From: Escherichia coli
Lineage (GTDB): Bacteria; Pseudomonadota; Gammaproteobacteria; Enterobacterales; Enterobacteriaceae
Assembly: GCF_003334255.1 (NCBI RefSeq)
Contig: NZ_QOWU01000056.1
Length of the DNA: 38,759 bases
Reading direction: 5' to 3' (one strand)
Made by a program: the position numbers and the translations under genes. This document shows positions 2,341-31,040 of the stretch, one piece after another. Position 1 is the stretch's first letter. Each line of letters opens with the position of its first letter. The notes below the pieces were generated by a model. The model did no database searches and was not told the DNA's origin. It saw nothing but the letters and a program-made list of their open reading frames with translations.

Positions 2341-3298
2341 GTTGTAATCGTTGTTGCTGAAGGGTCGGCTGGGTTATCCGATGGATGAGTACATCAATCG
2401 CCAGCTCCCCCAGTTCATCTTTCGGTTGGTGGATAGTGGTTAATGGTGGCGTCATAAAGCTTGCCAGTTCGATATCGTCATAGCCAATCACCGCGATATC
2501 CTGCGGAACCTGTAACTCTGCCTGATATAACGCCTGGTAAACGCCAACAGCCATAGCGTCATTTCCGGTAAAGACGGCCTGAGGACGCAGCGGATGTGAT
2601 AGCAGTTGGCGCATAGCGTCAAACCCGCCGTTAAATTCAAAATCACCAGTGACTTCATAGCCATCAGGAATGTTGAGACCCGCACGTTTCATCGCCGCCC
2701 GATAACCTTCCAACCGCAGGCGCGCCGGAGTTTTATCCAGCGGGCCGGTAATACAGGCGATACGGGTATGACCTTTATCGATCAGATATTGCGTTGCTAA
2801 GTCTCCGCCCAGCAACGAGTTATCCTGAATAAGATCGCTGTCGCCATCGAACGGAGCCCAGTCCATCATCACAGTAGGCACTGTCGGATAACGTTGCATG
2901 ATTTCACGCGAAGGTTGATGCGTTTCGGTGCACAGTAACAGCAAGCCATCAACGCGTTTTTGCATCAGCGTTTCCAGATTGCGATTCATCCGCTGTTCAT
3001 CGCCTTCGGTATTGCAAAGGACGAGACTATAACCGCGTTCGAAGCAGCTGCGTTCAACGCCACGCACCAGTTCTGAATAGAAAGGATTGGTACTGGCAGT
3101 GATCAACATGCCAATGGTATGTGTTTGATTGAGTTTGAGGCTACGCGCCAGAGCTGATGGCGCGTAATTGAGTTCTTTAATCGCCGCTTCAACTTTGGCG
3201 GTAATCGCTTCACTGACGAAGCGATCTTTATTGATAACGTGAGAAACTGTTGAGGTAGAAACGCCCGCCAGGCGGGCAACATCTTTCATTGTAGCCAA
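2306..3298 (-). CDS. rbsR: ribose operon repressor RbsR (LacI family)
   Basis: 330-aa ORF; N-terminal LacI-type HTH ([24 protein letters not shown]); immediately downstream of rbsK. Confidence 0.95.
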
Positions 3299-4231: not shown

Positions 4232-4356
4232 ATTCGGGATGTCCATAAAATGCGCCACCGTGTTAGGGTGGCGCGTGCCCTGCTTTTCTTTATATTACAC
4301 GTTCATCTGTCGATGACGTATTTATGTCACCATCAGGTCATACAACCTGATTAAAA

Positions 4357-10431: not shown

Positions 10432-11928
10432 ATGGCTCACCCTCATTTATTAGCGGAAAGAATTTCCCGCCTGAGCAGTTCGTTGGAAAAGGGGCTTTAT
10501 GAACGTAGCCACGCCATCCGCTTGTGTTTATTAGCGGCATTAAGTGGTGAAAGTGTGTTCCTCCTTGGCCCGCCAGGTATTGCCAAAAGTTTGATCGCCC
10601 GGCGCTTAAAATTCGCCTTTCAGAATGCCCGCGCGTTTGAATATCTGATGACCCGCTTCTCCACGCCGGAAGAAGTTTTTGGTCCCCTTTCTATTCAGGC
10701 GCTAAAAGATGAAGGGCGCTATGAACGTTTAACCAGCGGTTACCTGCCGGAAGCAGAAATTGTCTTTCTGGATGAGATCTGGAAAGCGGGCCCGGCAATT
10801 CTTAATACCTTGCTCACCGCCATTAACGAGCGCCAGTTCCGCAACGGTGCACACGTAGAAAAAATCCCGATGCGTCTGCTGGTGGCGGCCTCCAACGAGC
10901 TGCCGGAAGCAGACAGCAGTCTGGAAGCGTTATATGACCGCATGCTGATTCGTCTGTGGTTAGATAAAGTGCAGGATAAAGCGAATTTCCGCTCCATGCT
11001 GACCAGTCAACAGGATGAAAACGACAATCCGGTTCCTGATGCCTTGCAGGTCACAGATGAAGAATATGAACGCTGGCAGAAAGAGATTGGTGAAATTACG
11101 CTGCCCGATCATGTATTTGAGCTGATTTTTATGCTGCGCCAGCAACTGGATAAATTACCGGATGCGCCTTATGTCTCGGATCGTCGCTGGAAAAAAGCGA
11201 TCCGATTATTGCAGGCCAGCGCCTTTTTTAGCGGTCGCAGTGCTGTTGCCCCGGTAGATCTCATTTTGCTGAAAGATTGCCTGTGGTATGACGCGCAAAG
11301 CCTGAATTTGATACAACAACAAATTGATGTATTGATGACCGGTCACGCCTGGCAACAGCAAGGGATGTTGACTCGCCTTGGCGCGATTGTGCAACGTCAC
11401 CTGCAACTCCAGCAGCAACAAAGCGATAAAACAGCCTTAACGGTAATTCGTCTGGGCGGCATTTTCAGCCGTCGTCAGCAGTATCAACTTCCTGTTAACG
11501 TTACTGCTTCCACTCTGACTCTACTGCTGCAAAAACCGTTAAAACTGCATGATATGGAAGTGGTTCATATCTCCTTTGAGCGTAGCGCGCTGGAACAGTG
11601 GCTGAGCAAAGGTGGTGAAATTCGCGGTAAACTGAACGGTATCGGCTTTGCCCAGAAACTGAATCTGGAAGTTGATAGCGCCCAACATCTTGTCGTTCGC
11701 GATGTAAGTTTACAAGGCAGTACGCTGGCACTTCCCGGTTCATCGGCTGAAGGTCTGCCTGGTGAAATAAAACAACAACTGGAAGAGCTTGAAAGCGACT
11801 GGCGCAAGCAACACGCTTTATTCAGCGAACAGCAAAAATGTCTGTTTATCCCTGGCGACTGGTTAGGTCGCATTGAAGCCAGCCTACAGGATGTCGGTGC
11901 ACAGATTCGCCAGGCACAACAATGCTAA
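10432..11928 (+). CDS. ravA: MoxR-family AAA+ ATPase RavA
   Basis: 498 aa starting [14 protein letters not shown]; Walker A GPPGIAKS; ORF track start is 8 codons upstream. Confidence 0.93.
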
Positions 11929-27856: not shown

Positions 27857-29686
27857 ATGTGTGGAATTGTTGGCGCGATCGCGCAACGTGATGTAGCAGA
27901 AATCCTTCTTGAAGGTTTACGTCGTCTGGAATACCGCGGATATGACTCTGCCGGTCTGGCCGTTGTTGATGCAGAAGGTCATATGACCCGCCTGCGTCGC
28001 CTCGGTAAAGTCCAGATGCTGGCACAGGCAGCGGAAGAACATCCTCTGCATGGCGGCACTGGTATTGCTCACACTCGCTGGGCGACCCACGGTGAACCTT
28101 CAGAAGTGAATGCGCATCCGCATGTTTCTGAACACATTGTGGTGGTGCATAACGGCATCATCGAAAACCATGAACCGCTGCGTGAAGAGCTAAAAGCGCG
28201 TGGCTATACCTTCGTTTCTGAAACCGACACCGAAGTGATTGCCCATCTGGTGAACTGGGAGCTGAAACAAGGCGGGACTCTGCGTGAGGCCGTTCTGCGT
28301 GCTATCCCGCAGCTGCGTGGTGCGTACGGTACAGTGATCATGGACTCCCGTCACCCGGATACCCTGCTGGCGGCACGTTCTGGTAGTCCGCTGGTGATTG
28401 GCCTGGGGATGGGCGAAAACTTTATCGCTTCTGACCAGCTGGCGCTGTTGCCGGTGACCCGTCGCTTTATCTTCCTTGAAGAGGGCGATATTGCGGAAAT
28501 CACTCGCCGTTCGGTAAACATCTTCGATAAAACTGGCGCGGAAGTAAAACGTCAGGATATCGAATCCAATCTGCAATATGACGCGGGCGATAAAGGCATT
28601 TACCGTCACTACATGCAGAAAGAGATCTACGAACAGCCGAACGCGATCAAAAACACCCTTACCGGACGCATCAGCCACGGTCAGGTTGATTTAAGCGAGC
28701 TGGGACCGAACGCCGACGAACTGCTGTCGAAGGTTGAGCATATTCAGATCCTCGCCTGTGGTACTTCTTATAACTCCGGTATGGTTTCCCGCTACTGGTT
28801 TGAATCGCTAGCAGGTATTCCGTGCGACGTCGAAATCGCCTCTGAATTCCGCTATCGCAAATCTGCCGTGCGTCGTAACAGCCTGATGATCACCTTGTCA
28901 CAGTCTGGCGAAACCGCGGATACCCTGGCTGGCCTGCGTCTGTCGAAAGAGCTGGGTTACCTTGGTTCACTGGCAATCTGTAACGTTCCGGGTTCTTCTC
29001 TGGTGCGCGAATCCGATCTGGCGCTAATGACCAACGCGGGTACAGAAATCGGCGTGGCATCCACTAAAGCATTCACCACTCAGTTAACTGTGCTGTTGAT
29101 GCTGGTGGCGAAGCTGTCTCGCCTGAAAGGTCTGGATGCCTCCATTGAACATGACATCGTGCATGGTCTGCAGGCGCTGCCGAGCCGTATTGAGCAGATG
29201 CTGTCTCAGGACAAACGCATTGAAGCGCTGGCAGAAGATTTCTCTGACAAACATCACGCGCTGTTCCTGGGCCGTGGCGATCAGTACCCAATCGCGCTGG
29301 AAGGCGCATTGAAGTTGAAAGAGATCTCTTACATTCACGCTGAAGCCTACGCTGCTGGCGAACTGAAACACGGTCCGCTGGCGCTAATTGATGCCGATAT
29401 GCCGGTTATTGTTGTTGCACCGAACAACGAATTGCTGGAAAAACTGAAATCCAACATTGAAGAAGTTCGCGCGCGTGGCGGTCAGTTGTATGTCTTCGCC
29501 GATCAGGATGCGGGTTTTGTAAGTAGCGATAACATGCACATCATCGAGATGCCGCATGTGGAAGAGGTGATTGCACCGATCTTCTACACCGTTCCGCTGC
29601 AGCTGCTGGCTTACCATGTCGCGCTGATCAAAGGCACCGACGTTGACCAGCCGCGTAACCTGGCAAAATCGGTTACGGTTGAGTAA
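27857..29686 (+). CDS. glmS: glutamine--fructose-6-phosphate aminotransferase
   Basis: 609-aa ORF starting MCGIVGAI (Ntn-hydrolase Cys after Met removal); ends ...AKSVTVE. Confidence 0.98.
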
Positions 29687-29692
29687 TAAATG

Positions 29693-29722
29693 GATGCCCT
29701 GCGTAAGCGGGGCATTTTTCTT
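29693..29722 (+). terminator. rho-independent terminator after glmS
   Basis: Stem ATGCCCTG / CGGGGCAT followed by a T-run. Confidence 0.7.
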
Positions 29723-29782
29723 CCTGTTATGTTTTTAATCAAACATCCTGCCAACTCCATGTGACAAACCGTCATCTTCGGC

Positions 29783-29811
29783 TACTTTTTCTCTGTCACA
29801 GAATGAAAATT
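29783..29811 (+). promoter_or_regulatory. upstream PhoB-binding pho boxes of the pstS promoter
   Basis: Direct CTGTCAC (29783..29789) and CTGTCAT (29805..29811) repeats about 11 bp-phased with the downstream boxes. Confidence 0.6.
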
Positions 29812-29893
29812 TTTCTGTCATCTCTTCGTTATTAATGTTTGTAATTGACTGAATATCAACGCTTATTTAAATCAGACTGAAGACTTTATCTCT

Positions 29894-29933
29894 CTGTCAT
29901 AAAACTGTCATATTCCTTACATATAACTGTCAC
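29894..29933 (+). promoter_or_regulatory. core pho boxes of the pstS promoter
   Basis: CTGTCATAAAACTGTCATA (29894..29912) matches the pho-box consensus CTGTCATA(A/T)A(A/T)CTGTCA(C/T); a second box ends in CTGTCAC at ~29927..29933. Confidence 0.85.
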
Positions 29934-29981
29934 CTGTTTGTCCTATTTTGCTTCTCGTAGCCAACAAACAATGCTTTATGA

Positions 29982-31040
<1,059 letters not shown>

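Follow-up and report, generated by a model that had tools for sequence, protein, structure and literature searches.

The Escherichia coli pstS promoter and a putative distal module of PhoB-like half-sites upstream of its core

The pstS (phoS) promoter is defined by two tandem pho boxes plus a -10 element. In the E. coli DNA analysed here (a stretch of 38,759 nucleotides, hereafter called the window) two further CTGTCAY heptamers, H1 and H3, are located upstream of these boxes (Table 1), which raises the question of whether they belong to the promoter or are only a remnant or a resemblance. On both strands of the 38.8-kb window CTGTCAY is matched exactly ten times, and five of these matches fall in a stretch of 141 bp at the promoter. 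An initial annotation made from the sequence alone had described the arrangement as four phased pho boxes, and all the heptamers it named were indeed found with exactly the strings and at the places it gave.

The locus and its core promoter

The 501 bases around the heptamers match E. coli K-12 MG1655 with 100% identity, and there they are annotated as the glmS-pstS junction. pstS is the first gene of pstSCAB-phoU, and pstC and pstA follow it in the window. Window positions were mapped to NC_000913.3 by the relation genome = 3911525 + (30000 - window), derived from the intergenic length and the published pstS coordinates (3910484-3911525). As a check of this map, the published PhoB peak in rbsK at 3937206 falls on window position 4319 and adjoins a matrix match at 4325-4342. 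Inside rbsK two PhoB-matrix matches of opposite orientation overlap (window 4312-4342), and the intragenic ChIP-seq peak at this place has been reported as transcriptionally inert (Fitzgerald 2023). Six-frame translation of the glmS-pstS intergenic region (ORFs of at least 20 aa) gave only short mechanical ORFs with no peptide support, and 29600-30050, scanned against Rfam with a permissive E-value, returned three sub-threshold chance matches only and no known RNA.

Pho boxes were defined as units of 18-22 bp with two CTGTCAT-like heptamers as direct repeats 11 bp apart. They were scored with an 18-column log-odds matrix built from 58 of the 59 PhoB ChIP-seq sites in Table 1 of Fitzgerald 2023, the pstS site being excluded. 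The scan with a PhoB matrix, proposed as a check together with the initial annotation, was significant for the core. Box 1 (29895-29912, 23.3 bits, p = 3e-11) is the top match in the window and scores above every site of the training set, box 2 (29917-29934, 15.6 bits, 0.19 expected per window) scores at about the median of the bound sites, and both are the best untrained matches in the window. In the species comparison described below, the first half-site of box 1 reads TGTCAT in 44 of 47 species and the last half-site of box 2 reads TGTCAC in 43 of 47. The core boxes are near-invariant in the stack of 48 sequences, and the -10 hexamer is invariant (mean information 1.98 bits). A sigma-70 consensus scan of the + strand found no -35/-10 pair, which is as expected since the promoter is PhoB-dependent, and gave no support for a separate constitutive promoter. 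The start of pstS transcription would lie about 7 bp downstream of the -10 hexamer.

Published data on PhoB binding and expression are available for this site. Fitzgerald 2023 reported pstS as the most enriched PhoB ChIP-seq region (score 38, the highest in the table) and as the only region still bound by PhoB at high phosphate, with pstS RNA at 239,097 in the wild type and 310 in delta-phoB (~770-fold by RNA-seq, ~900-fold by qRT-PCR). The centre of the ChIP-seq peak (3911600) maps to window 29925, inside the core and downstream of box 1, and box 1 is itself the MEME site of this top peak (Fitzgerald 2023). The published PhoB ChIP-exo peaks (Choudhary 2020) map to window 29855-29896 and 29941-29976. 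These two peaks flank the core boxes (29894-29934) instead of covering them. They may show where the exonuclease stopped at either side of a single large complex of PhoB and RNA polymerase, or they may reflect a coordinate convention. In the published summary tables, the distal units at 29793-29836 lie outside both ChIP-exo peaks and the ChIP-seq centre, although such tables would be compatible with a weak, cooperative occupancy of these units.

The core does not differ from the E. coli pstS (phoS) promoter as reportedly defined by Makino et al. 1988 and Kimura et al. 1989, with the same two boxes, a 10-bp gap to the -10 and no -35. The core is the textbook pstS promoter, intact, and already known biology. 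For this part the description as the strongest Pho-regulon promoter, known and intact, is borne out by the matrix scores together with the published occupancy and PhoB dependence. The retrievable definition of the promoter ends at the two boxes and excludes 29793-29836, and reviews and ChIP papers give only CTGTCATAAAACTGTCAT for pstS. In the definition reportedly given by Kimura in 1989, the promoter comprises two pho boxes and the -10. The searchable literature (Kimura 1989 and Spira & Yagil 1999 were outside the search) has no description of a distal or looping site for PhoB at pstS, and the label of known biology does not extend to the distal part.

Table 1. Features of the glmS-pstS region and of related sites. 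Positions refer to the window unless a locus is named.
Feature	Position	Strand	Details
rbsK PhoB-matrix match	4312-4329	-	15.5 bits
rbsK PhoB-matrix match	4325-4342	+	16.0 bits; site belonged to the matrix training set
glmS end	29686		glmS-pstS intergenic length 313 bp
glmS intrinsic terminator	29692-29717	+	11-pair stem, then T run; left intergenic boundary
Conserved block	29761-29785	+	GTGACAAACCGTCATCTTCGGCTAC; alignment of 26 genera; mean 0.81 bits for 29761-29775
Distal unit 1 (H1 CTGTCAC-AGAA, H2 TGAAAAT-TTTT)	29793-29814	+	Weak, pho-box-like; 8.8 bits
Heptamer H1, CTGTCAC	29793-29799	+	Exact string
Distal unit 2 (H3 CTGTCAT-CTCT, H4 TCGTTAT-TAAT)	29815-29836	+	7.5 bits; H3 strong, H4 decayed
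Heptamer H3, CTGTCAT	29815-29821	+	Exact string
Spacer, distal module to core	29837-29893		Length conserved, sequence not, except for the IHF-like motif
IHF-like motif	29842-29854	-	+ strand reads TAATTGACTGAAT; consensus WATCAANNNNTTR on - strand; genome 3,911,671-3,911,683
Core pho box 1, CTGTCAT-AAAA-CTGTCAT(A)	29894-29912	+	Two consensus half-sites; 23.3 bits
Core heptamer CTGTCAT	29894-29900	+	Exact string
Core heptamer CTGTCAT	29905-29911	+	Exact string
Core pho box 2, CTTACAT-ATAA-CTGTCAC(C)	29916-29934	+	At the -35 position; 15.6 bits
Core heptamer CTTACAT	29916-29922	+	Exact string
Core heptamer CTGTCAC	29927-29933	+	Exact string
-10 hexamer TATTTT	29944-29949	+	10 bp after the last heptamer (end 29933); no -35 consensus
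Shine-Dalgarno AGGAG of pstS	29990-29994	+	CAGGAGACATTATG; invariant across all aligned genera
pstS CDS, 346 aa	30000-31040	+	ORF list; RefSeq annotation of the identical K-12 locus
Mean column information (48-sequence stack), bits			H1 1.56, H2 1.71, H3 1.16, H4 1.15; spacer 0.60; core 1.70
lpf-type inverted pho box	L001 2933-2950	-	At -178 from the pstS ATG in L088, L089, L041 and L046
lpf-type IHF-like motif AATCA-N5-TTA	L001 2977-2989		Between the inverted pho box and the core

The upstream heptamers and their conservation

Each of the two upstream heptamers is the 5′ half of a weak unit with a poor 3′ half (TGAAAAT at 29804 and TCGTTAT at 29826). The resulting four distal half-sites, H1 to H4, start at 29793, 29804, 29815 and 29826, keep an 11-bp register and map to 3,911,689-3,911,732 of the genome. 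Spacing is 11-11-11 bp in the core and 22 bp between the upstream heptamers, and distances of 79 and 101 bp separate the two clusters. The phasing of roughly 11 or 22 bp that had been proposed for the whole array is thus found inside each cluster but not between them: 79 and 101 bp are both 2 bp beyond a multiple of 11, and therefore the four repeats are not all in one register. The number of boxes also has to be qualified, since the core alone makes up two boxes with four half-sites and the upstream heptamers are halves of weak units. To speak of four pho boxes is defensible only if two of them are taken as strong and two as weak.

When tested as single sites with the matrix, the distal units failed. 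Scores of 8.8 bits (29794) and 7.5 bits (29816) are not significant, with 13-23 such matches expected per window, and both lie under the 10th percentile (10.8 bits) of the ChIP-bound sites. Two 18-mers 22 bp apart that both score at least 7.5 bits are found in the window only at 29794 outside the core registers, and such tandem pairs occurred in 0 of 60 random windows. For the heptamers themselves, the 207 bp from glmS to the core were shuffled 100,000 times with dinucleotides preserved: 82 of the 100,000 shuffles (p ~8e-4) contained two or more + strand heptamers, and 4 (p ~4e-5) contained two or more with a spacing of 11n. Because these counts are so low, the clustering of the heptamers exceeds chance. 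As PhoB sites the upstream repeats therefore do not pass the single-site test, but they do pass the tandem test and the test of conservation across genera.

For the latter, one genome per species with PstS was taken, giving 80 Enterobacterales loci. In 47 of the 80 species the matrix placed a PhoB-like site, scoring 8 bits or more, at precisely 101 bp upstream of core box 1 (the -101 site). Its median is 11.2 bits, and distal sites of 12-15 bits are present, for example, in Lelliottia, Phytobacter and Kosakonia. These species include members of Enterobacter, Citrobacter, Klebsiella, Raoultella, Kluyvera, Leclercia, Lelliottia and Kosakonia and also span Phytobacter, Yokenella, Trabulsiella, Siccibacter, Franconibacter, Atlantibacter and Pluralibacter; among the 80 loci, those of Serratia, Yersinia, Cedecea and Buttiauxella are without the distal site. 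Beside the 47 species with 101 bp between H1 and the core, 2 have a distance of 102 bp, whereas E. albertii and an Escherichia sp. have 90 bp. The -79 site, which had no role in the selection of species, has a median of 10.6 bits and reaches at least 7 bits in 36 of the 47 species, as compared to 0.05% of spacer offsets. Matrix matches at -110/-111 in Pseudescherichia vulneris and Escherichia sp. ESNIH1 were rejected, as they lie in the last codons of glmS and are not the module.

H1 reads TGTCAY in 41 of the 47 species, H2 reads (G/T)AAAAT in 43 and H4 reads TGTCAY in 25. The conserved TGTCA cores are 33 bp apart and have the same orientation as the core. The ungapped stack gives the consensus TGTCAyAaAAAgAAAATtTt.ctGaaAt.t.a.tGTCAt, followed by tTAac....TGaT. 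TGTCAT at H3 was found in E. coli and in no other species compared. In E. coli, H3 has been gained and H4 has decayed to TCGTTAT, the position at which other genera have a strong half-site. From the alignment, H1 is the ancestral heptamer and H3 an E. coli novelty, and the shift from H4 to H3 looks like a compensated turnover by exactly one 11-bp step in which the register was kept. H2 is as invariant as the core boxes though off the TGTCA consensus. This hints at another constraint or another protein, and it may reflect selection that keeps the half-site weak, or a role for another factor or an A-tract bend. In other genera the conserved block at 29761-29785 reads ATGACAAnCTGTCATCTTCAGCTAC and is partly palindromic (ATGACA-N3-TGTCAT); it is out of the 11-bp register, since it lies 24-26 bp upstream of H1. 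Taken across genera, these comparisons indicate that the upstream repeats head a conserved distal module of four half-sites (29793-29836) and are not noise.

The spacer between module and core contains a motif, TAAC-N4-TGAT, that is the reverse complement of the IHF consensus and has 2 mismatches in K-12. At the aligned position at most 2 mismatches were found in 45 of 48 sequences and at most 1 in 29 of 48, compared to a background of 2.6% of the other spacer positions, and the motif is perfect in E. albertii and in cryptic-clade sequences. It emerged from the alignment only: a search of K-12 for the IHF consensus with at most 1 mismatch gave none in the spacer and 34 in the window, where 33 are expected. 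The shorter spacer of E. albertii and the Escherichia sp. (90 vs 101 bp) results from an 11-bp indel equivalent to window 29856-29866, and the helical phase is kept because 11 bp make up one helical turn.

Alternative upstream regions within E. coli

Of 5,426 complete E. coli genomes, 3,066 (57%) contained a query covering the module (29745-29892) and 2,360 (43%) did not. In the E. coli variants inspected, all substitutions were located in the spacer and none in H1-H4; strain DETEC-P793 has six, all of them in the spacer. In four module-less strains that were inspected, the segment is replaced by the lpf (long polar fimbria; lpf-O113-type) operon, with the glmS terminator included in the replacement (window 29687-29891 versus positions 2864-3004 of lpf-type locus L001 and 2812-3112 of L003). 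Homology to K-12 resumes a few bases upstream of core box 1 (~29890-29895) in the module-less strains examined, and the DNA upstream of the core in those strains is the 3′ flank of the lpf operon. The module is thus dispensable in the sense of replacement, as 43% of the E. coli genomes have replaced it.

At -178 from the pstS ATG the lpf flank encloses a pho box in inverted orientation that scores 18.7 bits (p = 1e-7 per position). This box and, after it, an IHF-like motif lie in the stretch from the lpf terminator hairpin to the core boxes. Inverted boxes of 17.2-18.7 bits accompanied by AATCA-N5-TTA were found both in E. coli (three strains) and in Enterobacter (two species). The lpf-type loci of E. 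coli and Enterobacter have the same layout and different sequences, and LpfD is only 34% identical between them. In two unrelated upstream contexts, then, an upstream pho box is followed first by an IHF-like motif and next by the core. Alternatively, the lpf-type inverted pho box could act on the lpf side, by driving transcription there or by blocking it.

A full Tn7 (tnsABCDE and a class 2 integron with dfrA1-sat2-aadA1) was observed 100 bp after the glmS stop in E. coli VE-F5. Its junction corresponds to 29786-29790, 3 bp upstream of H1 (positions 10461 and 24533 of locus L087). Among the best 8 of 54 genomes with both halves of the junction query, the halves are ~79 bp further apart, and the Tn7 end in those 8 is at the canonical site in the glmS terminator, ~25 bp after glmS. 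VE-F5 is an exception, since the Tn7 end is canonical in those 8 genomes. The canonical site lies upstream of the module, and the module accordingly stays attached to pstS in natural and engineered Tn7-carrying genomes.

Possible functions of the distal module

We consider it probable that the locus is a PhoB-dependent pstSCAB-phoU promoter that consists of the core and of a separate low-affinity distal module tuning its induction. Sequence and matrix scores, together with published ChIP data and the literature, establish the core step, that is PhoB binding and recruitment to the -10. Phosphorylated PhoB dimers are arranged head-to-tail on the two tandem boxes (29894-29934), which replace a -35 element, and core-bound PhoB~P recruits sigma-70 RNA polymerase to the -10 hexamer at 29944-29949. 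The distal module, which starts 101 bp upstream of the core, would form two low-affinity pho-box-like units, strong-weak plus strong-weak in K-12. Extra dimers of PhoB would be taken up there only through cooperativity or when PhoB~P is high. The IHF-like site has kept its distance and its helical phase to the core, and a bend at this site may then fold the distal PhoB back onto the core complex. In this way the module would adjust pstS induction in its threshold, its steepness or its ceiling and would not be required for induction, and the lpf flank as a replacement again offers an upstream pho box plus an IHF-like motif. We infer this role of the distal module from its PhoB-like conserved letters, the fixed distance that preserves phase, the compensated turnover and the convergent layout of the lpf-type loci; counted against it were the low scores in K-12, the missing ChIP signal, the fact that many strains dispense with the module, and the invariance of H2 despite its non-consensus sequence. 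That pstS, the best-studied Pho promoter, has an undescribed second tier is a more far-reaching claim, which we put forward as possible and quite tentative. This tier would be a distal PhoB cluster and an IHF bend, kept across Enterobacteriaceae at a fixed distance from the core that preserves phase, and E. coli would be polymorphic for it with two non-homologous versions.

An origin of the upstream heptamers by chance in AT-rich intergenic DNA could be suspected, as single-site matches of this strength are expected many times per window and the total count of CTGTCAY in the window is not above expectation. However, this is ruled out by the shuffles, above all those with 11n spacing, by the tandem pair missing from all random windows, and by a position kept in 47 species next to a spacer that diverged freely; it deserves practically no credence. 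More serious is the explanation that only the core boxes matter in E. coli and that the upstream heptamers of K-12 are a functionless, decaying remnant of an ancestral site. The low single-site scores would fit with this, as would the lack of ChIP-exo and ChIP-seq signal over the heptamers, the decayed H4, the two mismatches of the IHF-like motif in K-12 and the large share of E. coli genomes that are without the module and show no obvious harm. Yet E. coli gained a perfect CTGTCAT as H3 at a distance of exactly 11 bp from the H4 that it lost, which resembles compensated turnover and not decay, substitutions within the species spare H1-H4, module-less genomes gained another strong upstream pho box, and the tandem pair is statistically unusual in K-12 by itself. 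We therefore regard a mere remnant as rather unlikely.

The conserved block could also belong to another DNA-binding protein or be an intrinsic A-tract bend, with the TGTCA letters a mere resemblance. H2 and the surrounding A-runs, invariant like the core and off the PhoB consensus, speak for this, and so does the partly palindromic conserved block just upstream (29761-29785). Both conserved TGTCAY cores are nevertheless in the 11-bp register and oriented like the core boxes, the unselected -79 unit is PhoB-like in most of the species, GAAA-type second halves are found among ChIP-bound PhoB sites, and the lpf-type replacement brings an unmistakable pho box, which makes this explanation improbable. 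Very improbable, in our view, is that the distal module is a second PhoB-dependent promoter (P2), in which the units would substitute for a -35 and the conserved TA(A/T)C about 9 bp downstream would form part of a -10. The layout resembles that of the core, with a tandem unit, a gap of 9-10 bp and a conserved T-A start at 29842. However, the proposed -10 lacks conservation at its last position (K-12 has TAATTG), the equally conserved TGAT four bases further on suits IHF and not a -10, a second promoter would need neither the strict 101-bp distance nor an 11-bp indel, and the sigma-70 scan was blank on the + strand.

A distal module that tunes the core would have partial counterparts in known systems. 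Multi-box Pho promoters are known from ugpB (multiple pho boxes) and phoB (two PhoB sites), and complex PhoP operators with 2, 4 or 6 repeat units from Streptomyces and Mycobacterium. These share with pstS the arrays of 11-bp direct repeats of unequal strength, with weak units beside strong ones, for dimers of the OmpR/PhoB family arranged head-to-tail. In multi-box promoters the extra units adjoin the core array, whereas the distal units at pstS are 57 bp off, with a conserved spacer length and the IHF-like motif in between. At ompF, OmpR occupies the proximal sites F1-F3 and the distal site F4 with IHF in between, and a loop has been proposed. By analogy, pstS may be similar to ompF in having a regulator of the same family, a proximal activating array, a distal site of lower affinity on the same strand and an IHF-like site between them, and the effect would be expected to grade with regulator concentration as well. 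The distal distance is ~100 bp at pstS vs ~260 bp at ompF, looping at pstS is only what we infer, and pstS is not known to be repressed when PhoB~P is high. Secondary citations, which refer to Spira & Yagil 1999 and Taschner 2006, name IHF as a second regulator of the pstS promoter.

The promoter itself is textbook knowledge, and the window is confirmed to carry it intact. The distal module would be a modestly interesting addition that leaves the classification of the locus unchanged, and the added value is comparative: a conserved distal module, a fixed spacing and an IHF-like motif, with an lpf-type alternative that is likewise undescribed in the searchable literature. Should the module bind PhoB, this would account for the occupancy of pstS, which is the strongest among Pho promoters and the sole one seen at high phosphate, would give the reported effect of IHF on pst a mechanistic place, and would predict allele-dependent Pho signalling in lineages with and without the lpf operon. 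If the tentative reading as a second tier is true, the module would set the induction threshold or ceiling of pstS, and the whole Pho response would be affected via the feedback of Pst flux on PhoR. Strains of E. coli, of which 57% have the ancestral direct-repeat module and 43% the lpf flank with its inverted high-affinity pho box, could then differ heritably in phosphate sensing.
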